The position numbers and the translations under genes were made by a program. Shown one piece after another: positions 5,199 through 53,519 of a DNA stretch of 64,000 nucleotides. Source of the stretch: Chitinophaga pinensis. GTDB lineage: Bacteria; Bacteroidota; Bacteroidia; 2-12-FULL-35-15. A model generated the notes under the pieces. It worked only from the letters and a program-made list of their open reading frames with translations. It was not told the origin of the DNA and did no database searches. Position 1 is the first letter of the stretch, and the number at the start of each line of letters is the position of its first letter. The DNA lies in contig CAMBDK010000001.1 of the NCBI GenBank assembly GCA_945865315.1, positions 4,378 through 68,377 on the forward strand, written 5' to 3'.

Positions 5199-7337
5199 TT
5201 AACGAACTAAAGTAACACTTCCTGTCCGCGTAATTTTTTTACCACTTGCGCTCTCCAAATCAAATGTGCAAATATAAACAGCGGCTTGCCCTGTCTCCCC
5301 TTTATATGTACCATCCCAGCCGTTACGTATATCAAATGTTTCAAAAACTAGTTGGCCCCATCGGTTAAATATTCGCATTCGATATGATTTTATACCTGCC
5401 CCATAACCACTGAAGAAATCATTTTTTTCATTTTTATTTGGGGAGAATGCATTAGGGTAATAGAAATAGAAATCAGGCAAAACAATAATTGTTTGGGATG
5501 TAGTATCCGAGCAATCATTTTGATTTGTTGAAATGAGCTTAACAACATAGGTTCCTTCATTTATATAAAAATGTTGGGGGTTTTTATCTGTAGAAATAGA
5601 ATCTTCCGAGTTGTCGCCAAAATTCCAATAATAAGAAACAGCTCCTGAAGAACTATTGTCAAATGCCAGGGTTTGGTTAGTTGTAAATGTATATTGAAAA
5701 TTTGCATTTATGGGGTAAACAGTAATATTTACACTATCTGTAATTATAAAGCCACAATTATCTTCAACTGTTAATATATAAATTGCCGAATTTTGGGGTT
5801 GAATACTAAAAGAATCAAGGGAAGTAATATTTGGTGACCACAAATACTTATAATTTGGTAAGCCCCCAGTAACTTCGGCATCAATGAATAAATTCCTTCC
5901 CCCACAAATTGTTGTATCATTGTTAAGTTTTAATTCCATAGGGATATAAGGAACAAAATTCACAGTGCAGCTATCAATTGCAATATTTCCACAACTATCG
6001 GTAACTGTAACTATATAGGTTGTAGTTATTGAAGGATTGATGTGAATAGTATCCTTGGTGCCTGATGAATTTGTCCAGCTATAAGAATAGGAACCAATTG
6101 CTACACCTCCAAATGTAGTGGCTGTCAAAAATAAATTTTCTGGAGGACACATAAGGGATGTGTCATCATTTAAACTTACTTTTAATGGAGGGGTATCTAT
6201 GATGTATATTGTTTTGTAGAGGGTATCACTGCCTCCGCAAGTGCTTGTTGCAAACAGTGAAAGCAAAACCGTTTCTGTTCCTTCAATTAATAAGTCGGGC
6301 AAGGAGATAATTTTTACAGAGGCTGTATCCTGACCGATAGCAAAATTAATGCTATCAACTATAGAGGAATAATCCAAACCATTATCGGCAGTGCCACTTA
6401 ATGAAAAGTGAAAAGTCTCTGCAGTTGAAGTATGCGCCAATCCTCTATCAACTAATAAATATGCAAAACCACAACCTTCATAAACTGTGCTATCATTATC
6501 TAAAAGACCACCACCAAAATTTGAGCCTGTTGTTAAGTTTGGAGGCCCAGCACTAGCAAAACTCCCAGCCTCTAAAAAAACACCTGAATCCCAGCTGCCA
6601 TCACCGGCATCAGCAATTGCTAACTTAATATGATAGCTGGTGCCACATTGCACTGGGGAAATAGCCGTGAGAGGAATAGTAAAGCCATCATATTGCACCG
6701 TTAAGCCTGCCGGAATTTCGTTGTCAAAATAGTAAGAAGGATTTGATGTAGCATTTACATTGTTTATAGATACAGGGGTAGAGGTTCCCGGAATTAATGC
6801 AATGTTTTGGCTGGTGTAATTTCCTCCAGCTGGGTTAATACCAGTAATAAAAAAACCAAATACATCATTAAAAGAGGAATTTGCAAATTCCATGTATTCT
6901 TCTGAACCAAAAACATATTTAAATTTAATGGTATCTGACGTGGGTATAAAATCAAATTCCAATATGGTAGCATCATGCAAAGTGTTCGTTGCAATACCAA
7001 CCAAATCAGGATCAGTAGAAGTAAGTCCTGAGCCACCATTGCTTAAACTACCGCTATTGTTTGCCCCATCCGCTACACTAACACTGCCGCTTGCTAATAT
7101 TACACCTGCAGCTAAGCCGATATTTGATGTCGCACCAATAAAGGAACCAATAGCAGTTGCGCCTCCATTATAGGTGATGTTAGAAGCTGTTATACCACCT
7201 CCAAGTAAAATGTTCTGCACCAATTGAGTGGGAGTTAATGCTGTACTTGTTGTTAATTGAGCTTTTATAGATGAAGGCAGGTCAATTATAAGTATTATAA
7301 CAAAACAAAAACAGCGTAGTACATTAAATTTCATCAT
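5199..7337 (-). CDS. T9SS cargo protein: choice-of-anchor L domain + Calx-beta-like + SprB repeats + type-B C-terminal domain
   Basis: Signal peptide. N-terminal region (TDPDLVGIA..ILEFDFIPTSDTIKFKYVFGSEEYMEF..GFFITG..YDGFTIPLTA..SGVFLEAGSF) is typical of the choice-of-anchor L domain. SprB-repeat motifs SYSYSWTNSSG and NYKYLWSPN are present. C-terminus YYPNAFSPNKNEKNDFF..RIFNRWGQLVFE..NGWDG is the type-B T9SS sorting domain. It is a paralog of the partial gene at 1..2493. Confidence 0.7.
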   Translation of the reverse strand: MMKFNVLRCFCFVIILIIDLPSSIKAQLTTSTALTPTQLVQNILLGGGITASNITYNGGATAIGSFIGATSNIGLAAGVILASGSVSVADGANNSGSLSNGGSGLTSTDPDLVGIATNTLHDATILEFDFIPTSDTIKFKYVFGSEEYMEFANSSFNDVFGFFITGINPAGGNYTSQNIALIPGTSTPVSINNVNATSNPSYYFDNEIPAGLTVQYDGFTIPLTAISPVQCGTSYHIKLAIADAGDGSWDSGVFLEAGSFASAGPPNLTTGSNFGGGLLDNDSTVYEGCGFAYLLVDRGLAHTSTAETFHFSLSGTADNGLDYSSIVDSINFAIGQDTASVKIISLPDLLIEGTETVLLSLFATSTCGGSDTLYKTIYIIDTPPLKVSLNDDTSLMCPPENLFLTATTFGGVAIGSYSYSWTNSSGTKDTIHINPSITTTYIVTVTDSCGNIAIDSCTVNFVPYIPMELKLNNDTTICGGRNLFIDAEVTGGLPNYKYLWSPNITSLDSFSIQPQNSAIYILTVEDNCGFIITDSVNITVYPINANFQYTFTTNQTLAFDNSSSGAVSYYWNFGDNSEDSISTDKNPQHFYINEGTYVVKLISTNQNDCSDTTSQTIIVLPDFYFYYPNAFSPNKNEKNDFFSGYGAGIKSYRMRIFNRWGQLVFETFDIRNGWDGTYKGETGQAAVYICTFDLESASGKKITRTGSVTLVR

Positions 7338-13436: not shown

Positions 13437-13460
13437 TAGCAGCATTTATACCATCATTAA

Positions 13461-13496
13461 AAAAGCCCTTCAAACTTATTTGAAGGGCTTTTTTAA
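13461..13496. terminator. Bidirectional Rho-independent terminator between convergent genes
   Basis: AAAAAGCCCTTCAAA-CTTA-TTTGAAGGGCTTTTTT: perfect 12-bp stem with a 4-nt loop, flanked by an A-run and a T-run. Confidence 0.7.
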
Positions 13497-13550
13497 TGAT
13501 GGTATATTATTGAAAAGAAGTATAACTATATTTTAATGCCATATAAATAA

Positions 13551-17947: not shown

Positions 17948-19003
17948 ATGTTATTTCAAAACAGAGTTAACAAAAAGGAGCTTAAAAAAAAGATTCAAGA
18001 AGATACTACTAAACGGTGTACCATATCGTTTTACCGCTATGTTATAATTGAAAATCCAGAGGAACTGCGTAACAATTTGTTTGTTTCTTGGAACGAGCTT
18101 AGCGTTTTTGGCCGTATTTATATTGCGCATGAAGGCATAAACGCTCAAATGTCAATACCAGAAGAACATTTCGAACTTTTCAAAAAACAACTTAATGCTG
18201 ACCTGCGTTTCGAAAAAATGGTATTTAAGATTGCCGTAGAAGATAATGGTAAATCTTTTTATAAATTAACTGTTAAAGTGAGGCATAAAATTGTGGCAGA
18301 CGGCTTAAAGGAAGGTGATTTTGATGTTACGAATGTTGGGAATCATTTAACTGCAAAAGAATTTAATAAGGCAATGGATGATGCTTCTACCATTGTTGTG
18401 GACATGCGTAATCATTACGAAAGTGAAGTTGGTCGATTTGTGGGTGCTATTTGTCCGGATGCGGATACTTTTCGTGAAGAATTACCCATTGTGATAAATG
18501 AATTGAAAGATAAGAAAGATAGGAAAATAATAATGTATTGTACTGGAGGTGTTCGTTGTGAAAAAGCAAGCGCATATTTAAAACATCATGGATTTAAAGA
18601 TGTGAGTCAACTGCAGGGTGGCATTATAGATTATGTTCGACAAATAAAAGCTGAAAACTTACCTTCAAAATTTATCGGAAAGAATTTCGTTTTTGATGAA
18701 CGTGTAGGAGAGCGTATTACCGATGATATAATTGCCCAATGTCATCAATGTGGTGCAGTTTGTGATACACATGTAAATTGCGCTAATGATGATTGTCATT
18801 TGCTATTTATTCAATGTGAAAGTTGTTTTAAAAATACAAAAGGTTGTTGTACTGCAGAATGTATGCATATTGCTGACCTACCAATTGAAGAGCAGCGTTC
18901 CCTCCGTAAGGGCCGGAAAAAGACAGATTGCCTCTCTGTATACAAAAGCAGATTGCGTCCAAATTTAAAAGAGATTTTAGACAATAAGAGTTTGAAAGGA
19001 TAA
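17948..19003 (+). CDS. trhO: tRNA uridine(34) hydroxylase TrhO (rhodanese-domain protein, YceA/UPF0176)
   Basis: N-terminal ACT-like region, central rhodanese with active-site CTGGVRCEKA, and a C-terminal Cys-rich tail. Collinear with YceA/TrhO. Confidence 0.7.
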   Translation: MLFQNRVNKKELKKKIQEDTTKRCTISFYRYVIIENPEELRNNLFVSWNELSVFGRIYIAHEGINAQMSIPEEHFELFKKQLNADLRFEKMVFKIAVEDNGKSFYKLTVKVRHKIVADGLKEGDFDVTNVGNHLTAKEFNKAMDDASTIVVDMRNHYESEVGRFVGAICPDADTFREELPIVINELKDKKDRKIIMYCTGGVRCEKASAYLKHHGFKDVSQLQGGIIDYVRQIKAENLPSKFIGKNFVFDERVGERITDDIIAQCHQCGAVCDTHVNCANDDCHLLFIQCESCFKNTKGCCTAECMHIADLPIEEQRSLRKGRKKTDCLSVYKSRLRPNLKEILDNKSLKG

Positions 19004-19102
19004 ATTAAACAAATTAGTAATGTATAAAATTTATTAACTGTTGAAGAAGAAGAAATTCGTTAATAATATTGATATTAAATTTGTTGTTTCTTTTTTTATT
19101 TA

Positions 19103-19300
19103 AGGCATTGTTAAAAAATAACTAATACATTCTGGCTTGTTCTTTTGCCCTTTTTCTACTTTATAAAATCGTTAAATCGCTAAGGCTATTCGCGCATGTA
19201 CGCTGTCTCGGTTATATCCAGCCTCTGGCTGCCTGTCGCGCCTTGAAAAAGAACAAAATTACTTTGCCAATTCTTTACCATTTATTTCTTAACAATGCCT
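19103..19300 (-). repeat. TIR-bounded ~198-bp intergenic element, copy 1 (MITE-like or structured ncRNA)
   Basis: Left end AGGCATTGTTAAAAAATAA and right end TTATTTCTTAACAATGCCT form an 18/19-nt terminal inverted repeat. The element aligns end to end with 43250..43441. It is locally GC-richer than surrounding intergenic DNA and contains a CAGCC-TCT-GGCTG hairpin. Confidence 0.6.
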
Positions 19301-19314
19301 AAGCCGTTATATAA

Positions 19315-32186: not shown

Positions 32187-35100
32187 TGATAAAATTAATA
32201 GAATTGAAAAAAATAATTTCCATATACCTTTTATTTCTAATAATATCCGTCCCTTCGGTATTTTCACAAACCGTTAATGTAACTATTATTTATAATGGAG
32301 CGCAATCACAGGGGTGTTGTAATGTTTGCGGTGTTGATTATTGGTGTATAAATAATACAGGAGGTTGCGGTACCACAGCCGCTTGCGATAACAGAACTTT
32401 TTCCGACCCTGTACCTGCCGGTAATATTATTACTGGGATTTCAGTAAATTATTTTGGAGCGGGTTGTGATGCACAATCTGAGCCTACCTTTATTAATGGC
32501 GTTTTTATAGGGGCTGCTCCCAGTGACGGGGCTTGCAGTTGTTATAACCCACCGACTTGCTCTTCATATCCTACAAGCAATACATTCCCTTGTCCAACAG
32601 GATTGCCTAGCTATAATTATGGTGGAAACAATGTTTTTCAATGTTGCCCTACCGATGCATTTTGTCCTCAAAGGGCAATAATTACTATTACCTATACCCC
32701 TGTATCGATAACGCCAACAGCTGCAACAGCTAGTCCCAATCCATCTTGTGGAGGAGCCATTACGCTTTCAAAAGTAGGGGGGGCATTAGGGGTAGGTGCT
32801 GTTTGGAAATGGTATTCTGGCTCCTGTGGTGGAACTCTTGTTGGTACAGGAGCTACTATTACGGTAACACCAACTGCCACTACCACATATTTTATTCGTG
32901 CAGAAGGTTCTGGCTGCGGCACTAGTGGATGTGCTCAAGTAACTGTTACAGTTAATAGTCTATCAGTTGACCCTACAGCTGCAACAGCAAGTCCTAGCAC
33001 TACCTGTGGAGGCGCTACTACACTTAATGTTACAGGAGGGTCTTTAGGTTCGGGAGCTTCATGGAAATGGTATTCATCATCATGTGGTGGAGCAGCCGAA
33101 GGAACAGGTGCATCTATTACCGTAAATCCTACTGCTACAACCACTTATTTCGTTAGAGCGGAAGGGCCCTGCAATAATACCAGTTGCGTTCAGGTGCTTG
33201 TTACCGTTAATCCTGTTCCATTTGCTATCGCAACACCTGCTGCTCAAACATTTTGCTCTGGAAATACTACGTCCATTAGTTTAACTAGCCTTACCCCAGG
33301 TACAACTTTTGCATGGACTGTTGTTCAAACTGGAGTTTCCGGAGCTACAAATAACTCAGGAACCTTAATTGCTGAAACATTAACTTCATTAAGCGGGGTG
33401 CAAGGTACAGCAGTTTATACAATTACACCAACAGCAAATTCCTGTGCTGGTAATCCTATAACTGTAACAATTACAGTAGATCCGGTACCAGTAATAACAG
33501 CAACACCTTTAAACCAAACAATATGTGCTGGTACAATTTTACCGACTTTTTTAACAAGTAATGTTTCTGGTTTAGTGTTTACATGGACTGTTGTTGAAAC
33601 AGGTGTTTCAGGAGGAACAAATTCTTCAGGAACAACTATTTCTGATTCATTGATTGCAACAGGAGGAGTTGCAGGTACCGCAGTTTATACAATTTCTACA
33701 ACTTCTAGTGGCTGTCCTGCCGCCTCTATTACTAATACCATTACCTTATTACCTGACCCAGGAACTTCAGCTACTGCAAGCCCTGCAATATCTACAATTT
33801 GCTCTGGAACATCTACTGCAATAACCTTATCTAGTGTTGCTATTGGTACTGTTTTTACCTGGACAGTATCAGAAGTAGGCGTAACTGGAGGTTCGGGTGG
33901 TACAGGTGCTACTATTTCTCAATTGTTAAATTGTGGATTAATACCAGGAACTGCAACTTATTCTGTAGCTTCTGATGCGAATGGCTGCATTGGAAATCCT
34001 ATTAATGTTGTAGTTACAGTTAATCCAACACCTATAGGAACAGCAACTCCATTAACAGAAACATTTTGTTCAGGCGACAGCACCTCTATTGTATTAACAA
34101 GCAATAATTCGGCAACTACATTTTCATGGACAGTTTTTCAATCAGGGGGAGTTACAGGAGCAACTTTTGGGACAGACACCATTATTCAACAAACCTTAAC
34201 AAATTCAGGAACAGCATCAGGTACAGCTGTTTATACCATTATACCAATTATAAATGCCTGTGCGGGTGCTCCTTTAATTGCAACCATTACTGTGAATCCC
34301 CTGGATGGCGCATCTTTTGTTTATTCATCCGCCACTTATTGTCAATCGGGCATTAATCCAACTCCTGTAATAACAGGTTTGTCGGGCGGAACATTTTCTA
34401 CTAATACACCGGGTTTATCTGTTGACCCATCAACAGGTACAATTACATTGGCCACAAGTGTTGTGGGGGCCTATAATCTGTGTTATTCAACTACAGGGAT
34501 TTGTCCCGATTCAAGTTGTATCCTAATGACAATTGAAAACTCTACACCATTTGCAGATTTCTCCTACTCAGGTTCTCCTTTTTGTCAAAATGGACTTAAT
34601 CCATTTCCTGTTTTTGTTCCTGGAGCCAGTGCTGGTGCTTTTTCCGCATCTCCAATTGGTTTGCAATTCATTAGTATCAATACCGGTGAAATTGACCTGG
34701 CAAATACTGTTCCAGGGTCTTATATCATAACAAATTTTATCCCCCAAAGCGGTTTTTGTGATCCTGTAACGGCTACTAGTGCAGTTGTTATTATTTCTTC
34801 AGATGATGCATCCTTCGTATATACTTCAGCAACTTATTGTACTACAGGAAGTCCACAAACACCCGTAGTTACTGGCTTATCAGGAGGTGTTTTCAGTTCT
34901 TCTCCTACAGGCTTGTCGTTAAACCCTTCAACAGGTACTATTACTTTATCAGCTAGCGCCTATGGTTCATACACACTTGTATATTCTACAAATGGTGTTT
35001 GTCCGAGCGCAGATTCAATTACCATGACAATTGATACCATTACTCCTTCTGCAACTTTTTCATACATCGGCTCGCCATTCTGTCAAAATGCGATTGATCC

Positions 35101-37351
35101 ATTTCCATTTTTTAGCCCCAATGCTAGTGCAGGAATATTTTCTGCCACCCCTTCTGGACTATCCTTTGCAAATGTTAATACAGGAGAAATTGATTTACTT
35201 AATTCAACACCAGGAAGTTATATAGTAACTAATACAATACCTGCAAGCGGCATTTGCTTGCCTATTAGCGATACCTATGCAGTTATCATAAGTGCTTCTG
35301 ATGATGCATCGTTTACCTATCCGTCAGCTACGTATTGCACCACTGGTCCTCCACAAACACCTTCTATTACAGGTTTGCTTGGTGGAGTCTTTTCCTCTCT
35401 GCCTCCTGGTTTATCAATTAACGCTTCAACTGGATTAATTAATTTAGCAAACAGCGCTCTTGGTATTTATACCCTTACCTATTCAACAAATAGTTCTTGT
35501 CCTAATTCTAGTTTTATTATTATGACAATAGCTGACAGCACACCTTTTGCGAACTTTTCTTATTCCGCCACAACTTTTTGTCAGAATGCAGCAAACCAAA
35601 ATCCAACATTTACGCCAGGTTCTAGTGCAGGAACATTTTCAGCAACACCTGCCGGTTTAGTTATAGTAAATGCCAATACAGGGGAAATAGATATAGAAAA
35701 TAGTATACCAGGAACCTATCTTATTACCAATACGATTCCACAAAGTGGAATATGCCTATCCGTTAATGCAAATACAACCCTTATGATTATAGAGGCAGAC
35801 GACGCTTCTTTTTCATACTCATCTGCCACCTATTGCACTACAGGAACACCTCAAGTGCCATCTATTACAGGTTTGCAAGGGGGCACCTTTTCTTCTTTGC
35901 CTAGCGGTTTATCACTTGATCCAGCAACTGGAACCATTACTTTATCTACTAGTATTATTGGAGCTTATACGCTTACTTATACAACATTTGGCAATTGCCC
36001 AAATTCAAGTTCAATTACAATGACAATTAATGATACCGTTTCCTCTGCTACCTTTAGTTATGTAGGCTCCCCATACTGTCAATCCTCTGGGACTAACATA
36101 TTTCCTACCTTTGGAATAGGCGCAAGTGCTGGAGTTTTTTCCGCAAGTCCTTCAGGGTTGATAATTACCCATGTAAATACAGGAGAAATTGATCTGTCGG
36201 AGAGCGCACCAGGGACATACAATGTCACAAATACCATACCTGTTAGTGGTTCCTGCCTTTTTGTAAATGCCTCCTTTGTTATAACAATTATTGGAGCTCC
36301 TGTAGTTACAGCAATACCTAATGCACTTGCTTTTTGTGAGGCAGGTATCGCTGCCGTTTCCATAGCTTTATCAAGTTCTGTTTCACCAACTACATTTGTT
36401 TGGACAGTTTCGCAATCTGGGCTTACAGGAGCTTCTCCAGGAACAGGAGCTGTTATAAATCAAACATTAACAAACCAAGGAACAGGATCAGCTACAGCTG
36501 TTTATACTATTACACCAAACGCAAATGGCTGCAGTGGCGATCCTATAAATATAACTATTATTGTTAGTCCAACAGTTTTTGATAGTACAGCAATGGTAAT
36601 AACACCAGGCAACTGTGGAATAACATTAGGTTCCATCGCTGGAATAACCGTTAGCTCAGGTCAATCACCATTTACATATCAATGGAAAGATTCCATAAAT
36701 GTTATAGTACCAGGTGCGGGCACTGCAAATTTGAATAATGTAGAACCCGGGAACTATTCCTTAATAATTACGGATGCTAATGGTTGCTCAGTTACTTGTG
36801 GTCCAATAATGGTTAATAATAATCCTCCTGTTATAGCGGCATTTACTGCAAATCCATTAACAGGTGAAACGCCACTAACAGTTGATTTTACAAATAATAG
36901 TTTAGGTGCTTCAACTTATATTTGGCAATTTGGTACAGGAGATTCATCAACAGTTGCAAATCCAACTTATGTATATATTCCATTAGGGAAATTTACAGTA
37001 TGTTTAACAGCAATAAGTGCTTTTAATTGTATTGACACTGCTTGTTCTATAATAGAAGTTAATATAAATTCAATATTCATAATTCCCAATGTTTTTACAC
37101 CCAATGGTGATGAAGTAAATGATATGTTTACTATTAAAGGAAGAGGGATAAAAACTATGAACGCAGAAATATATACCCGATGGGGACAAAAAATTTATGA
37201 ATGGCATACACCCTATGGTGGATGGGATGGGCATATGGCTAGTGGGGAATTAGCTAGCGAAGGCACTTATTATTTTATCATTTCAGCATCAGGAATTGAT
37301 GGGGAAAAATATTTTGAAAAAGGGTTTTTTAACTTAATTCAAAGTAAATAG
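32186..37351 (+). CDS. Very large repeat-rich T9SS (type-B C-terminal domain) surface protein
   Basis: 1721 aa. Signal peptide. N-terminal Cys-rich segment. At least two CGG..(W/Y)KWYSGSCGG.. repeats. At least five PKD/Ig-like TFxWTV..TGVSG..TAVYTITP repeats. At least four ~160-aa repeats (DDASFxYxSATYC..TGL(S/Q)GGxFS..STPFAxFSYSGSPFCQN..SAGxFSA.P.GL..N.NTGEIDL). C-terminus FIIPNVFTPNGDEVNDMF..IYTRWGQKIYEW..GWDG is the type-B T9SS domain. Confidence 0.7.
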   Translation: MIKLIELKKIISIYLLFLIISVPSVFSQTVNVTIIYNGAQSQGCCNVCGVDYWCINNTGGCGTTAACDNRTFSDPVPAGNIITGISVNYFGAGCDAQSEPTFINGVFIGAAPSDGACSCYNPPTCSSYPTSNTFPCPTGLPSYNYGGNNVFQCCPTDAFCPQRAIITITYTPVSITPTAATASPNPSCGGAITLSKVGGALGVGAVWKWYSGSCGGTLVGTGATITVTPTATTTYFIRAEGSGCGTSGCAQVTVTVNSLSVDPTAATASPSTTCGGATTLNVTGGSLGSGASWKWYSSSCGGAAEGTGASITVNPTATTTYFVRAEGPCNNTSCVQVLVTVNPVPFAIATPAAQTFCSGNTTSISLTSLTPGTTFAWTVVQTGVSGATNNSGTLIAETLTSLSGVQGTAVYTITPTANSCAGNPITVTITVDPVPVITATPLNQTICAGTILPTFLTSNVSGLVFTWTVVETGVSGGTNSSGTTISDSLIATGGVAGTAVYTISTTSSGCPAASITNTITLLPDPGTSATASPAISTICSGTSTAITLSSVAIGTVFTWTVSEVGVTGGSGGTGATISQLLNCGLIPGTATYSVASDANGCIGNPINVVVTVNPTPIGTATPLTETFCSGDSTSIVLTSNNSATTFSWTVFQSGGVTGATFGTDTIIQQTLTNSGTASGTAVYTIIPIINACAGAPLIATITVNPLDGASFVYSSATYCQSGINPTPVITGLSGGTFSTNTPGLSVDPSTGTITLATSVVGAYNLCYSTTGICPDSSCILMTIENSTPFADFSYSGSPFCQNGLNPFPVFVPGASAGAFSASPIGLQFISINTGEIDLANTVPGSYIITNFIPQSGFCDPVTATSAVVIISSDDASFVYTSATYCTTGSPQTPVVTGLSGGVFSSSPTGLSLNPSTGTITLSASAYGSYTLVYSTNGVCPSADSITMTIDTITPSATFSYIGSPFCQNAIDPFPFFSPNASAGIFSATPSGLSFANVNTGEIDLLNSTPGSYIVTNTIPASGICLPISDTYAVIISASDDASFTYPSATYCTTGPPQTPSITGLLGGVFSSLPPGLSINASTGLINLANSALGIYTLTYSTNSSCPNSSFIIMTIADSTPFANFSYSATTFCQNAANQNPTFTPGSSAGTFSATPAGLVIVNANTGEIDIENSIPGTYLITNTIPQSGICLSVNANTTLMIIEADDASFSYSSATYCTTGTPQVPSITGLQGGTFSSLPSGLSLDPATGTITLSTSIIGAYTLTYTTFGNCPNSSSITMTINDTVSSATFSYVGSPYCQSSGTNIFPTFGIGASAGVFSASPSGLIITHVNTGEIDLSESAPGTYNVTNTIPVSGSCLFVNASFVITIIGAPVVTAIPNALAFCEAGIAAVSIALSSSVSPTTFVWTVSQSGLTGASPGTGAVINQTLTNQGTGSATAVYTITPNANGCSGDPINITIIVSPTVFDSTAMVITPGNCGITLGSIAGITVSSGQSPFTYQWKDSINVIVPGAGTANLNNVEPGNYSLIITDANGCSVTCGPIMVNNNPPVIAAFTANPLTGETPLTVDFTNNSLGASTYIWQFGTGDSSTVANPTYVYIPLGKFTVCLTAISAFNCIDTACSIIEVNINSIFIIPNVFTPNGDEVNDMFTIKGRGIKTMNAEIYTRWGQKIYEWHTPYGGWDGHMASGELASEGTYYFIISASGIDGEKYFEKGFFNLIQSK

Positions 37352-42534: not shown

Positions 42535-43158
42535 TTAATGAAGCTTCGTTCCAATTAAGCTAATAAATTCCGCTCGAGTAGTCTCTTTTAAAAATTCACC
42601 CGTAAATGCAGATGTGGTAGTTACCGAATTCTGTTTTTGGATACCTCTCATTTGCATGCATAAATGCGAACATTCAATTACAACGGCAACGCCAAGTGGT
42701 TTTAAGGTATCTTCAATACAATCCCTTATTTCTGTTGTTAATCTTTCTTGAACTTGGAGCCTTCTTGCAAAAGCATCTATAACTCTAGGGATTTTACTTA
42801 AGCCAACAATGTATCCATTTGGTATATATGCTACATGGGCCTTACCAAAAAACGGGAGTAAATGGTGTTCGCACATGGAATAAATTTCAATGTTTTTTAC
42901 TAGTACCATTTGTTTATAATCTTCTTTGAACCGGGCTGATTTTAATATTTCTGTTGGATTGAGCTTGTATCCATGAGTAAGAAATTTCATTGCTTTTGCA
43001 ACACGTTCAGGGGTTTTTAAAAGTCCTTCTCTATGAGGGTCTTCACCAATTTCACTTAAAATACTTTTATATTTAGAAGCTAAACCTCCAATTGATTGTT
43101 CATTGTAAATATCAATTTTATTATAGCCTGTTAAATCGTCAAATTCGTCGTGGGACAT
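42535..43158 (-). CDS. folE: GTP cyclohydrolase I
   Basis: [40 protein letters not shown] motifs are diagnostic for FolE type I. Confidence 0.85.
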
Positions 43159-43249
43159 TTCGTTTTATTTATTTTTAATAGTAACAAGTTATATTCCTAT
43201 TATTATTAAACCAACTTATTATTAAAAAGATTATCTAAAAATCAATATT

Positions 43250-43441
43250 AGTCATTGTTACAAAATAACTAATAAATTTCGGCTTGTTTTTTTGCTTTCT
43301 TTCGTCTTGTAAAATCGTTTAATAGGTAAGGGTAATCGCCTGTAAACTCTGTTGCTCATCTAGCCACTGGCTGGCTGCTGTGACTTGAAAAGAATAAAAT
43401 TACTTCACCAATTCTGTGATATTTATTTCTTAACAATGCCT
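43250..43441 (-). repeat. TIR-bounded ~192-bp intergenic element, copy 2 (MITE-like or structured ncRNA)
   Basis: Aligns end to end with 19103..19300 (GTCATTGTTACAAAATAACTAATAAATTTCGGCTTGT.. to ..CTTGAAAAGAATAAAATTACTTCACCAATTC..ATTTATTTCTTAACAATGCCT). Imperfect TIR, and an internal AGCCA-C-TGGCT hairpin at the position equivalent to copy 1. It lies between queD and folE. Confidence 0.6.
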
Positions 43442-43450
43442 CAGATGTGG

Positions 43451-43864
43451 TTATTCTCCAAAATATTCCACATAATTGTTTTCAGTTTCACATAGTTTAA
43501 TGCAATGCAGTTCGCAATTTAATAATTTAAGATGAGGTGTTAATTCTTTCCAAATAGCAATCGCAACATTTTCAGTAGACGGCATCAGGTCTTTTAAAAA
43601 ATCGACATCCATGTTCAAATTTTTATGATCTAATTTATCCGTGATAAAAGTTCTTATAATACTACTTAGTTCTTTTAAATTAACAGAAAATCCTGTATCC
43701 GGATTTACTTTTCCTTTAACAGTAACAAACAAATTATAATTATGTCCATGCCAATTAGGATTGGCACATTTACCAAACACTTCATTGTTTTGGTCCTCCG
43801 TCCAATTTGGATTATACAATTTATGGGCGGCATTAAAATGTTCTCTTCGGGTAATGTGAATCAT
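43451..43864 (-). CDS. queD: 6-carboxy-5,6,7,8-tetrahydropterin synthase / 6-pyruvoyl-tetrahydropterin synthase family
   Basis: HFNAAHKL..CANPNWHGHNY (C-x5-HGH zinc motif), about 137 aa, directly upstream of folE on the same strand. Confidence 0.75.
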   Translation of the reverse strand: MIHITRREHFNAAHKLYNPNWTEDQNNEVFGKCANPNWHGHNYNLFVTVKGKVNPDTGFSVNLKELSSIIRTFITDKLDHKNLNMDVDFLKDLMPSTENVAIAIWKELTPHLKLLNCELHCIKLCETENNYVEYFGE

Positions 43865-44123
43865 GTTGCAAATATACTAGGAATTATGATACTTTTTAAT
43901 CAAGATTTCAGCTATTTTTCTTTCAATTTTAATATTGTAATAAAAACATTTAATTGATTTTTGTATTTTTAGTACCTCAATAAGTATATTTGTTAAATTT
44001 ACCTTGTCATCTTTGCATCTCAAACTAGGCGTTAAAAAATTATTGGTTTTTTAACGCATTATTTTAATTTTATAAAATAATGTTTAGAATAATAAAAGGT
44101 TTGAAAAATATTTTTCTATTTAA

Positions 44124-46602: not shown

Positions 46603-47469
46603 ATGAAATTTAAAAAAATAAATTTAAAAGTATATTTTGCAATAACAGTTGGTTTTTTTCTGTTTACTTCCTTTAGTTATAAATACCAAAGTTTAGAAAA
46701 TAACTCTCGGGAAATATTGCTTGGTGTTTTGGAGTCTATTTCAAAAATTAAAACGATGCGTTACCATCTTCTTTGTAATGAAAGAATAAATGGTAAAATA
46801 CAGCAAACAGAGTCAAAGGTAAAGTTGCAAATATCGCCCAGGAAATTATATTTATCTTTAAAAGGCCCTGAGTTATTGTGGTTAGAAGGTCAAAATGATG
46901 GAGATGCCTTGATAAATCCGGGAGCTTTTCCATATATTAATCTTAACCTAGATCCATTTGGTTCATTTATGCGAAAGGGGCAGCACCATACAATTCATGA
47001 AATGGGTTTGAAATATCTTTCTCTTATTTTGAATGCAGCCATTAAACGAGCAGGCGATAGTTTTGAGAAGAATTTTGTTGTTGTTGGGGAAGAAAAATAC
47101 TATGGACGAGATTGTTATAAACTTTCTATTGCTTTTCCCGATTTTGTATGGAAATCATATACAGTAAAGAAAGGTGAAGACCTTATATCAATTGCTAGAA
47201 AGCTATTTGTAAGCGAATACATGATATTGGAAAGAAACCCCAAACTAAGCTGGTACGATGATGTAAAAGAAGGGCAAATTATACAAGTGCCAGATGCATA
47301 TGCAAAACTAACTGTGCTCTTAATAGATAAGAAAATTTTATTGCCTGTTAAAAATGAAATATTTGATGATAAGGGACTTTTCGAAGCTTACGAATTTTAT
47401 GATTTAGATGTAAATTTGCCAATAGCAGCCGAAGAATTTACTGAAAATTATAAAGATTATAATTTTTGA
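46603..47469 (+). CDS. Hypothetical secreted protein with LysM-like motif, paralog A
   Basis: Signal peptide MKFKKINLKVYFAITVGFFLF. Shares ..SPRKLY(L/I)S(L/M)K..LW(L/I)EG(Q/K)N.G.ALINP..FPYINLNLDP.G..MRK.QHHTIHE.G..Y..CYKLS..FPDF.W..YTVKK.E..ISIA.K..VSE.MILE..VKEG....VP..YAKL..IDK...LP...EIFDDKGLFE.YEFY.L.VN....AEEFTE.YKDY.F with the next gene. YTVKKGEDLISIARKLFVSEYMILERNP resembles a LysM fold. The ORF track starts at 46558. Confidence 0.45.
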   Translation: MKFKKINLKVYFAITVGFFLFTSFSYKYQSLENNSREILLGVLESISKIKTMRYHLLCNERINGKIQQTESKVKLQISPRKLYLSLKGPELLWLEGQNDGDALINPGAFPYINLNLDPFGSFMRKGQHHTIHEMGLKYLSLILNAAIKRAGDSFEKNFVVVGEEKYYGRDCYKLSIAFPDFVWKSYTVKKGEDLISIARKLFVSEYMILERNPKLSWYDDVKEGQIIQVPDAYAKLTVLLIDKKILLPVKNEIFDDKGLFEAYEFYDLDVNLPIAAEEFTENYKDYNF

Positions 47470-47514
47470 TAAGCCTAAAGTGCATTATTCAAAAGTAACA
47501 AGCATTTTATATAT

Positions 47515-48384
47515 ATGATGAAATTAAAATTATACTTTTTGGTTAGAGGTGTTATATTGTTGATCGTTTGTTTGTTAATGGGCTCCTTTGGTAGCAAACA
47601 ACCGATAATAAAATATGATAGTCCCTCCATGTTAAATGAGATTATAAAATCAATAGCCAATGTAAAAACCCTTCGTTATGATTTAACACGCAACGAGCGA
47701 GTAAATGATAAAATACTCCTCTCAGAATCCAAGATTAAACTCAATGTTTCGCCACGTAAATTATATATTTCTATGAAAACTCAGGAAGTATTATGGATAG
47801 AAGGTAAAAACAATGGTAACGCCTTGATTAATCCTTTCACTTTTCCATACATTAACCTGAATTTGGATCCGATGGGAGCATTAATGCGCAAAAACCAGCA
47901 CCACACTATTCATGAGTTAGGAATGGAATACATTGCCGAAATTATAAAAAATGGAATGAAACATTATGGTGCTATGCTTTACAAACATTTTGTTATAATG
48001 GGGGAAGAAAAACATTTTGGAAGAAATTGCTATAAACTTTCGGCCACCTTTCCTGATTTTAAATGGTTGCCTTATACAGTTAAAAAGAACGAAACAATAA
48101 TTAGCATTGCCAATAAATTTAGTGTGAGCGAATTTATGATTTTAGAAAAAAAACAAGGAGCAACAGATTATAAGGACGTTAAAGAAGGAGAAGTCATACT
48201 TGTGCCGAATGTATATGCCAAATTGTTTTTTGTAATGATAGATAAGGAAAAGATGTTGCCGATAAGCGTGGAGATATTTGATGATAAAGGATTATTTGAA
48301 TCCTACGAATTTTATAATTTACAAGTAAATTCAACCATTTTGGCAGAGGAATTTACTGAAGATTACAAGGATTACCATTTTTAA
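47515..48384 (+). CDS. Hypothetical secreted protein with LysM-like motif, paralog B
   Basis: Tandem paralog of 46603..47469, collinear along its full length. Signal peptide MMKLKLYFLVRGVILLIVCLLMGSFG. Confidence 0.45.
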   Translation: MMKLKLYFLVRGVILLIVCLLMGSFGSKQPIIKYDSPSMLNEIIKSIANVKTLRYDLTRNERVNDKILLSESKIKLNVSPRKLYISMKTQEVLWIEGKNNGNALINPFTFPYINLNLDPMGALMRKNQHHTIHELGMEYIAEIIKNGMKHYGAMLYKHFVIMGEEKHFGRNCYKLSATFPDFKWLPYTVKKNETIISIANKFSVSEFMILEKKQGATDYKDVKEGEVILVPNVYAKLFFVMIDKEKMLPISVEIFDDKGLFESYEFYNLQVNSTILAEEFTEDYKDYHF

Positions 48385-48475
48385 GGATAAAGATCCTATT
48401 TTTTAAAATAAAGAATAAATTTCGATAAAAAAATAATTAAATTATATACACAAATCATGAAAACATTTTCAATAT

Positions 48476-51800: not shown

Positions 51801-53519
51801 ATGAAACTAAACACCTACTTTTTTTTTCGAATTACAATACTAATATTTCTGTTTGTAAAAACTAGTTCAGCGCAATGGTCTGGTTCTACGGCTTTAAATA
51901 CACTTGTTTGTAACGATTTAGGCAAACAAATTGATTTAAGGATGAGTGAGGATGGTAAAGGAGGAGCTTTTGTAGTCTGGGAGGATTATAGAAGCAGCGG
52001 CGGGTTTGGGTTGCCTGATATTTACATTCAATATTTGGATTCAGCAGGTTATCCTCAGTGGGAGGCTAATGGCATAGGTCTGTGCAAGGAATCATCCGAA
52101 CAAAATACCCCTGCTATTGTAACAGATATGTCGGGTGGGGTAATTGTTGCTTGGTCCGATTGGCGATCAGGTATTGAACGTGATATTTATGCGCAGCGAA
52201 TTAATGCGCAAGGTATAGTAATGTGGACGATTGACGGTGTGGGCGTAGCCAATAAACTAGAGCGAGAGAATAACGCAAAAATAATTAGTGATGGGGCTGG
52301 CGGTGCAATAATTGTTTGGGAACAGTTAGGTAATAGTGGTCTTTGGGATTTATTTGCCCAAAGGATAGATTCCTTGGGGGCTCCAGTATGGCAGCTTGGT
52401 GGATTGCCTATTTGCACGGTTAATGCTCAAAAGGTAAATCCAAAAATACAAAAAGATGGTAAAGGAGGCGCTATAATTACATGGCAAGATTATAGAAATT
52501 TAACCGACTATGATATTTATGCGCAACGATTAAGCCCTACTGGTGCATTACTTTGGGGTGTAGGTGCTAAGGCTATTTGTTCTGCCCAAGGTGCGCAAGT
52601 AGATCCTAAAATTGATCCGGATTCTATTACAGGAGGTGCTTATATTGTTTGGATAGATAAAAGAAATTTAACGGATTATGATATTTATGCGCAAAAGTTA
52701 GATGAAAATGGAAATATTTTATGGGCAATTGACGGGCTTAATGTTACAAATGCAATAGGCAATCAAAGTGCTCATGATATTTTAAGCAATGGAAGTATAA
52801 CCAATGGTTTAATTGTAACATGGAAAGATAATCGCTCCGGAGAGCTTGATATATATGCTCAGAAATTAAGTCCTGTGGGTATTAAACAATGGGGAAATAG
52901 TGATACACCTATCTGTAATTCAACATCAGATCAGTTAAATCCTAATATCGTAGATGATGCTGCCGGAGGAGCTATAATTGTATGGGAGGATTATTCTTCT
53001 TTTATTGAAAAGGATATAAAAAGCCAACGAATAAATAGTAATGGAATAATTCAATGGGATTTAAATGGTGTATTTGTTTCTAATGCTATAGCCAATCAGT
53101 CGAGCCCCAAAAATATTACTGATAATAAAGGAGGTGCTATTTTTGCTTGGCAAGATAAACGCAATGACGCTAATACAGAAAATGATATTTATGCACATCA
53201 CTTATATGCGGATGGTTCTTTTAATATGAGTATTAATGAAAAGATAGGGCTACCCGAAATAATTGTATTTCCAAATCCGTTTATTGACGACTTAAATATT
53301 TTAATAAATTTAAAGAGCGAGGAATCTATTTTAGTTCACTTGCATGATATCCTTGGTCGTCAATTATCCATTGGTATTTCAAAAAAATATAGTTCTTCAA
53401 ATGAAAGCCTGGTAATGAAAATAGAAACAGAAAAAACAAATTTGCCGGCTGGCATTTATTTTTTAAAGGTAAATGGAGCTAACTGGACAAAAACAATAAA
53501 AGTTATAAAAGGAAAATAG
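51801..53519 (+). CDS. Secreted repeat (beta-propeller-like) protein with T9SS type-A C-terminal domain
   Basis: Signal peptide. At least 7 repeats of ~45-55 aa ending in DIYAQR(I/L)..G...W (DIYAQRINAQGIVMW, DLFAQRIDSLGAPVW, DIYAQRLSPTGALLW, DIYAQKLDENGNILW, DIYAQKLSPVGIKQW, DIKSQRINSNGIIQW, DIYAHHLYADGSF). C-terminus FPNPFIDDLNILI..GIYFLKV.. is a Por_Secre_tail domain. Confidence 0.55.
   Translation: MKLNTYFFFRITILIFLFVKTSSAQWSGSTALNTLVCNDLGKQIDLRMSEDGKGGAFVVWEDYRSSGGFGLPDIYIQYLDSAGYPQWEANGIGLCKESSEQNTPAIVTDMSGGVIVAWSDWRSGIERDIYAQRINAQGIVMWTIDGVGVANKLERENNAKIISDGAGGAIIVWEQLGNSGLWDLFAQRIDSLGAPVWQLGGLPICTVNAQKVNPKIQKDGKGGAIITWQDYRNLTDYDIYAQRLSPTGALLWGVGAKAICSAQGAQVDPKIDPDSITGGAYIVWIDKRNLTDYDIYAQKLDENGNILWAIDGLNVTNAIGNQSAHDILSNGSITNGLIVTWKDNRSGELDIYAQKLSPVGIKQWGNSDTPICNSTSDQLNPNIVDDAAGGAIIVWEDYSSFIEKDIKSQRINSNGIIQWDLNGVFVSNAIANQSSPKNITDNKGGAIFAWQDKRNDANTENDIYAHHLYADGSFNMSINEKIGLPEIIVFPNPFIDDLNILINLKSEESILVHLHDILGRQLSIGISKKYSSSNESLVMKIETEKTNLPAGIYFLKVNGANWTKTIKVIKGK

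Follow-up and report, generated by a model that had tools for sequence, protein, structure and literature searches.

Two short elements 3' of the PuuD-like gene and queD are very probably MITE copies with ISAzo13-type ends

Introduction

In the 64-kb stretch of DNA analysed here (the window), the spacer on the 3' side of a PuuD-like gene and the spacer on the 3' side of queD both contain a sequence of somewhat less than 200 bp bounded by inverted repeats. A reading made from the letters alone (the sequence-only reading) left two identities open for this pair, namely a non-autonomous transposable element (MITE) or a structured small RNA or terminator-like module closed by a long terminal stem. 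Which of the two is it, and does its position directly behind stop codons point to a function for the host? We addressed these questions with the boundaries and flanks of the two copies, their relatives in other genomes, the transposase genes that adjoin identical ends, and the folding of the family.

Results

Two homologous non-coding elements are flanked by three-nucleotide direct repeats

Pairwise alignment showed that the two sequences, designated copy A and copy B (Table 1), are homologous from end to end with 79% global identity over the elements proper, as the sequence-only reading had claimed by eye. The ~19-bp terminal inverted repeats assigned to them were borne out in that the ends are complementary at 18 of 19 nt in copy A and 16 of 19 nt in copy B (the left repeat of copy B has three mismatches), but the outermost A and T belong to a target-site duplication and not to the element. 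Inspection of the flanks for TA or TAA duplications, a check proposed with the first description, revealed 3-bp repeats of TTA or TAA, one of which is imperfect in the window. In four of the six population contigs with the same insertion (L068, L071, L073 and L074) the copy B duplication is perfect, TAA...TAA in gene orientation being TTA...TTA on the + strand, so that the TCA found on the right side of copy B in the window represents a later point mutation.

Allowing up to 3 mismatches, the end motif TTATTTCTTAACAATGCCT occurs at four sites in the 64-kb window, and these are the four element ends; the chance expectation is ~0.11 matches per window and none of 100 shuffles gave four. A search with the whole-family profile (nhmmer) likewise returned two copies. 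The interior had been described as GC-richer than its surroundings, and this is correct, with a GC content of 38% for copy A and 34% for copy B against ~15% for the adjacent spacers. No ORF of at least 40 aa was found inside either copy, both are non-coding and lie under the size of ~300 bp that goes with MITEs, and their interiors have no similarity to transposase genes (tblastn, no match in the window). No ISAzo13 transposase gene was detected in the window by tblastn either. The element is without coding capacity and is built of two ~75-nt arms with extensive mutual complementarity, both of which end in the 18-nt sequence GGCATTGTTAA(A/G)AAATAA.

Table 1. Positions of the two elements, their parts and the neighbouring genes in the window
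Feature	Position	Strand	Basis and remarks
TrhO/UPF0176 rhodanese-family gene	17948-19003	+	ORF; Pfam UPF0176_N, Rhodanese, Rhodanese_C; stop 100 nt left of copy A
Copy A, left target-site duplication, TAA	19101-19103	.	read from sequence; equals 19300-19302
Copy A, probable MITE, GGCATTG...CAATGCC	19104-19299, 196 bp	+	alignment; nhmmer E=5.5e-37; better preserved copy
Copy A, left terminal inverted repeat, GGCATTGTTAAAAAATAA	19104-19121	+	motif scan, end pairing
Copy A, central insertion of ~37 nt	19195-19233	+	family alignment; contains AGCC-TCT-GGCT hairpin 19220-19230
Copy A, right terminal inverted repeat, TTATTTCTTAACAATGCC	19282-19299	+	motif scan, end pairing
Copy A, right target-site duplication, TAA	19300-19302	.	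read from sequence
PuuD-like gene (Urate_ox_N)	19315-20883	-	ORF, Pfam; stop 15 nt right of copy A
folE, GTP cyclohydrolase I	42535-43158	-	start codon 92 nt left of copy B
Copy B, left target-site duplication, TTA	43248-43250	.	read from sequence
Copy B, probable MITE	43251-43440, 190 bp	+	alignment; nhmmer E=3.2e-29; decayed
Copy B, right target-site duplication, TCA (point-mutated TTA)	43441-43443	.	population variants intact
queD, PTPS family	43451-43864	-	stop codon 10 nt right of copy B

Relatives in other genomes share the ends, the duplications and a 158-bp core

The 19-mer end was searched for exact matches in 185,579 species genomes, which gave 67 loci. Pairing of left with right ends defined 17 short elements in other genomes, with size classes of 158-159 bp and 190-199 bp in Bacteroidota and of 105 bp in an Acidobacteriota MAG. 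Perfect 3-bp direct repeats, TTA or TAA, flank 15 of these 17 elements; since the 3-bp flank is repeated directly and not in inverted orientation, it cannot be an outward continuation of the inverted repeat and represents a duplication. The freshwater Bacteroidota MAG CAIUZK01 'MJ-time_bin-5616' contributes at least 10 loci, among them four complete copies of 190-199 bp that are 93-98% identical to one another, and this close similarity indicates recent bursts of amplification. Several bin-5616 loci lie at contig ends, as expected of an assembly-breaking repeat. The contig of locus L082 ends 47 nt past the TrhO stop codon (~window 19050), ~50 nt before copy A, and together with the many bin-5616 copies at contig ends it makes the family appear to fragment short-read assemblies.

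Copies were also present in at least 8 further Bacteroidota assemblies. When metagenomes were scanned with the 21-nt right end, five loci were recovered, of which three are real copies, one is an IS end and one a chance match; the real copies are L085, which is the orthologue of copy A, L083 (flanked by TAA/TAA) and L084 (TTA/TTG). A plasmid collection held no match to the element.

Alignment of 16 family members revealed a core of 158 bp, into which insertions of 32-39 nt have entered three times independently at different central positions, in the window lineage (copy A, copy B and L085), in the 190-bp subfamily of bin-5616 and in L083. The insertion of ~37 nt seen in the window lineage is confined to copies A and B and L085, the members of the 158-bp class being without it, and the centre is the least conserved part of the element. 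The family is spread over many Bacteroidota, with the window copies as part of a sub-lineage marked by the ~37-nt central insertion.

The sequence-only reading had picked out a small hairpin at the same relative position in both copies, with stems differing in a way that looked like covariation. This did not survive closer inspection, because the stem AGCC-NCT-GGCT is the same in both copies (19220-19230 and 43362-43372) and only one loop base differs; the version with a 1-nt loop proposed for one copy is sterically impossible. As a covarying structure the central hairpin is ruled out, since it has one and the same stem and sits within a lineage-private insertion.

In the genome of a Dysgonomonadaceae MAG, a 42-bp element consisting of two terminal repeats placed back to back (GGCATTGTCAAAAAATAGTACTGTTTATTTTTTAACAATGCC) was observed at ~6722-6763 of locus L038, and this may be a minimal derivative.

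The same ends bound transposase-encoding ISAzo13 elements

In loci from Acidobacteriota, Bryobacterales, Terriglobia and Bdellovibrionales, tblastn showed the 19-mer end to adjoin ISAzo13 transposase genes. The transposase of locus L044 matched Pfam PF07592 (DDE_Tnp_ISAZ013) with E=7e-138 and NCBIfam NF033519 ('ISAzo13 family transposase') with 590.8 bits against a cutoff of 200, and that of L030 matched NF033519 with 370 bits; similarity of the ISAzo13 transposase to that of IS630 was weak (NF033545, E about 1e-9). A complete IS of 1395 bp occupies positions 4-1398 of L030; its ends read GGCATTGTTAAAAAATAAGTTGACG... and it is flanked by a duplicated TAA. The left 18 nt of copy A are those of the left end of this IS and of the end beside an ISAzo13 transposase remnant in L034, and the right end of copy A recurs unchanged directly beside the 3' ends of ISAzo13 transposase genes in L044, L039, L042 and L058. 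Between the transposases compared, identity is ~41-50%, and from phylum to phylum the terminal 17-19 nt hardly vary.

Among the loci found, full-length elements with the shared end belong to other phyla only (Acidobacteriota and Bdellovibrionota); tblastn detected no ISAzo13 transposase gene in any Bacteroidota locus fetched, and comparison of the plasmid collection with the IS gave only a weak Streptomyces match. To our knowledge the ISAzo13 family is poorly characterised. We found no description of ISAzo13-derived MITEs or of the terminal sequence in the searchable literature, ISfinder being outside this scope. Target-site duplications of 3 bp are described for ISAzo13 as well as for Zator, its relative in eukaryotes (PMC10045372), and Zator has been paired with ISAzo13-like elements (PMC5718144).

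The Acidobacteriota MAG JBDTUN01 has the complete 1395-bp ISAzo13 element together with at least four MITEs of 105 bp (L029 795-899, L033 6771-6875, L040 6353-6457 and L052 2732-2836), each with a TTA or TAA duplication and with its first and last ~25 nt in common with the IS, whose transposase gene in L030 is divided between two frames (99-434 and 449-1363). By their shared ends the IS and the 105-bp MITEs form an explicit parent-and-derivative pair. In a Bryobacterales MAG (L044 4239-5538), an ISAzo13 copy follows directly after another transposase-like ORF, and its right end is tandemly duplicated (TTATTTCTTAACAATGCCT ATTTCTTAACAATGCCT).

Termini identical to those of an IS could also be expected if copies A and B were independent remnants of full-length ISs that had been deleted internally. 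We regard this as hardly credible, because independent deletions would not yield the same junctions: both copies have the same non-IS interior down to the private insertion of ~37 nt, the 158-bp core is common to copies in many other genomes, and the interiors have no similarity to transposase genes (tblastn, no match in the window).

Insertion contexts and state of the two copies in the population

Both window copies were reported to begin just 3' of a minus-strand stop codon (19315-19317 and 43451-43453) and to have a common orientation relative to the gene concerned, and both statements hold for this pair. As a rule for the family they do not: adjacency to stop codons is a loose tendency and orientation is mixed. 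None of 15 elements examined interrupts a gene, all lying between ORFs; about half of them are within 25 nt of a stop codon, and two overlap the 3' end of an ORF by 8-22 nt. The stop codon in L022 is formed by the TAA duplication, and the final codons of the ORF in L045 come from the element. Several copies lie within apparent operons, 10-24 nt before the gene that follows, and in co-directional contexts the two orientations relative to the upstream gene occur 6:3 among the 15 elements, which is no bias. The stop-codon pattern can be explained by purifying selection together with a TWA target and the AT-richness of gene ends, with no need of a dedicated function; given the same target, and given that the 3' ends of genes tolerate insertions, the common orientation of the two window copies fits chance.

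Copy A was found in all eight population contigs read that span its site, and copy B in six of the seven contigs compared that encode the identical QueD. The strain in which L085 preserves the copy A orthologue is ~98% identical to the window and is the closest relative read. The window copies are old insertions, as they are only 79% identical to each other and occur in every population contig read, and they are probably no longer mobile in the source genome. Copy B is decayed, with a mutated repeat, a mutated duplication and a lost fold.

Empty sites were looked for, as had also been proposed with the first description. Copy B is absent from L072, a relative of ~96% identity, but the whole queD-folE spacer there is unrelated DNA, and neither window copy has a clean empty site in the contigs and relatives compared. 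An exact junction scan of JGI metagenomes for the empty copy A site returned 0 matches. TrhO homologues of 81-83% identity (P0008, P0014 and P0015) have different downstream genes, and therefore offer no orthologous copy A site for comparison. In bin-5616 (L049), the queD-folE spacer measures only 25 nt and contains no element.

The DNA that takes the place of the spacer in L072 (3415-4628, corresponding to window 43159-43450) is 1.2 kb long and contains a 334-aa ORF without a Pfam match. With this replacement, the queD-folE spacer stands out as a small hypervariable site flanked by conserved genes.

A compensated whole-length stem and its possible meaning

Copy A, on the strand that would be co-transcribed with the PuuD-like gene, is predicted to fold into a long rod of -64.4 kcal/mol (z=-7.6), as compared with -47.3 on the other strand. 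For copy B, neither strand (z about -1 each) folds better than shuffled sequence. In most family members the strand favoured in copy A is again the better one, by 10-25 kcal/mol, and the consensus fold is -31.7 on the better strand versus -22.8 on the other. For eight diverse 158-bp members, RNAalifold predicted 47 pairs, in which 92% of cells are paired, versus 40-53% when partners were slid by 1-3 columns, and 15 pairs have double changes versus 4-6 in the slid controls; the covariation score was not equalled in any of 500 shuffles. Across the family, covariation is a property of the whole-length stem and not of the small central hairpin. Subfamilies that keep the compensatory hairpin are only about 60-70% identical, and the compensatory changes reach the centre of the element, far beyond any plausible transposase-binding site.

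The strand asymmetry in folding is modest, is shared by descent and was obtained with a structure optimised for that strand. Counts of G·U versus A·C appositions, compared between strands as an indicator of RNA-level selection, differ modestly, being 3-9 versus 3-9 per element and 34 versus 14 in cells, the latter for a structure optimised on that strand; since shared descent confounds them, the counts are not decisive.

A covariation-supported stem over the whole length, in an interior that is GC-richer than the spacer, is what a structured small RNA gene or a cis-regulatory RNA family with a long terminal stem, as opposed to mobile DNA, might present. As the primary identity of the element an RNA gene is nevertheless refuted by the duplications and the IS-type ends, and we accord this reading practically no probability: 3-bp TTA/TAA direct repeats attend almost every copy, ISAzo13 elements with a transposase gene have the same ends, near-identical copies occupy unrelated loci of one genome, conservation is lowest at the centre, where lineages differ in their insertions, and orientation is mixed. 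A search of Rfam, suggested as a check by the sequence-only reading, gave nothing relevant on either element even at E<=10, and no Rfam 15 family, whether tRNA, riboswitch or small RNA, attains the gathering score in any part of the 64-kb window. A weak match to rnk_leader at 43457-43533, inside queD and below threshold, was treated as chance. The terminator-like module fared no better, since hairpin-plus-T-tract sites numbered 0 in 18950-19350 and 43100-43500, copy B folds no better than shuffled sequence and orientation is mixed.

A MITE might still have been co-opted by the host at the RNA level, where it would stabilise the 3' ends of PuuD-like and queD transcripts, be a target of RNase III or terminate transcription. 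The better-folding strand faces the upstream gene in both window copies, and the low energy of copy A on its co-transcribed strand, the strand preference of most members and of the consensus, and the high proportion of paired cells with their 15 doubly changed pairs all agree with such a role. However, copy B, in which a function should have persisted longest, folds on neither strand better than shuffled sequence, the 6:3 distribution of orientations shows no bias, neither element has a hairpin followed by a T-tract, and the strand asymmetry both goes back to common descent and comes from a structure that had been optimised on the favoured strand. In addition, the copies that lie within apparent operons, 10-24 nt ahead of the following gene, are probably read through, as is also suggested for the queD-folE element by the arrangement in bin-5616, where only 25 nt separate the two genes. 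We therefore consider co-option very unlikely; the decay of copy B, the mixed orientation and the copies inside apparent operons speak against a host-level RNA function.

A simple MITE model does not by itself predict compensatory changes out to the centre of the element. The covariation most likely reflects, in the main, selection on the element itself, for matching arms or for a snap-back intermediate in mobilisation. That the whole-length compensatory hairpin marks a folded strand selected as such, either as a snap-back DNA intermediate required when short elements transpose in the ISAzo13 manner or as an RNA hairpin co-opted repeatedly by hosts at gene 3' ends, is a reading we rate as improbable.

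Other repeats in the window and its relatives

A second, unrelated MITE family was noticed between accC and queD in L072 (2619-2881). Its 263-bp element has terminal repeats GTRAAGYYTTCRAAATAAYTTC and a TTA/TTA duplication; the window has the precise empty site, a single TTA at 43981-43983, and a copy of 90% identity resides at another locus (L084 6746-7008). The filled site in L072 and the empty one in the window were the sole clean pair of this kind observed; together with the further copy in L084 they show that MITEs that duplicate TTA have been recently active in the species complex.

At 13447-13506 the window has an inverted repeat (TATACCATCATTAAAAAAGCCCTTCAAA / TTTGAAGGGCTTTTTTAATGATGGTATA) whose 28-nt arms match perfectly around a loop of 4 nt; it is conserved in the strain of L085 and looks like a bidirectional terminator. 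Diverged direct repeats with 63-80% identity and periods of ~168-600 nt are present in long coding regions at 1-1650, 32700-36600, 47260-48400 and 51950-53220; they probably correspond to domain repeats in large proteins that are secreted or lie at the cell surface.

Discussion

Of the two identities first proposed, the MITE is the one that the results sustain. Because of their 3-bp TWA duplications, their ISAzo13-type ends and the multiple copies at unrelated loci elsewhere, copies A and B are very probably MITE copies dependent on ISAzo13-family transposases. Under this model, an ISAzo13 transposase supplied in trans would bind both ends, excise or copy the element and then integrate it at TWA. 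AT-rich TWA targets, TAA stop codons included, combined with the tolerance of gene 3' ends, would bring insertions to positions 10-15 nt after stop codons. If only copies with two matching arms were mobilised, the hairpin would be kept by compensatory changes between subfamilies, and the window copies would need no dedicated host function.

The family is previously undescribed as far as the searchable literature goes, but it is an ordinary genomic parasite and not a new RNA gene, and the spacers concerned should be annotated as MITE insertions instead of candidate small RNAs or terminators. For freshwater Bacteroidota MAGs, whose assemblies the family breaks, the 18-nt end together with the TWA duplication provides a masking signature. 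The ISAzo13 family for its part gains a terminal sequence conserved across phyla and a TTA/TAA target preference, and short non-autonomous derivatives of it are documented at 105, 158 and 190-199 bp, with a possible 42-bp element made of terminal repeats only. The finding opens no new biological question, and the whole-length hairpin maintained by covariation is the sole feature that goes beyond the textbook picture.

Compared with ISAzo13 ISs, the window elements have the identical terminal 18-19 nt (GGCATTGTTAA[A/G]AAATAA) and the same 3-bp TTA/TAA duplication, but they are only 190-196 bp long, encode no transposase and have an interior unrelated to the IS. The Correia/NEMIS elements of Neisseria and the RUP elements of Streptococcus pneumoniae are MITEs derived from IS630/Tc1-mariner-like elements; elements of this type are short and non-coding, have inverted-repeat ends, lie in intergenic positions often at gene ends, and are presumed to be mobilised in trans. 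The window family resembles them in being short, non-coding and intergenic, with terminal inverted repeats, a T(W)A-type target and a long hairpin, but the transposase family and the terminal sequence are others, and 3 bp (TWA) are duplicated here as opposed to 2 bp (TA) there. Promoter, IHF-site and RNase III functions are known for Correia elements, whereas we have no evidence of them for the window family. RNA-level roles at 3' ends exist for Correia and ERIC elements in other bacteria. The ERIC/IRU elements of enterobacteria are imperfect palindromes of ~130-200 bp in transcribed intergenic regions, in which internal insertions create size classes, and we know of no established transposase partner of the ISAzo13 family for them. 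A whole-length palindrome and lineage-specific internal insertions are common to ERIC/IRU and the window family, but the latter has explicit IS-type ends and duplications. Zator elements, compared here by description, are reported to be related to ISAzo13 and also to make 3-bp duplications (PMC10045372, PMC5718144), but unlike the window elements they are eukaryotic and autonomous.
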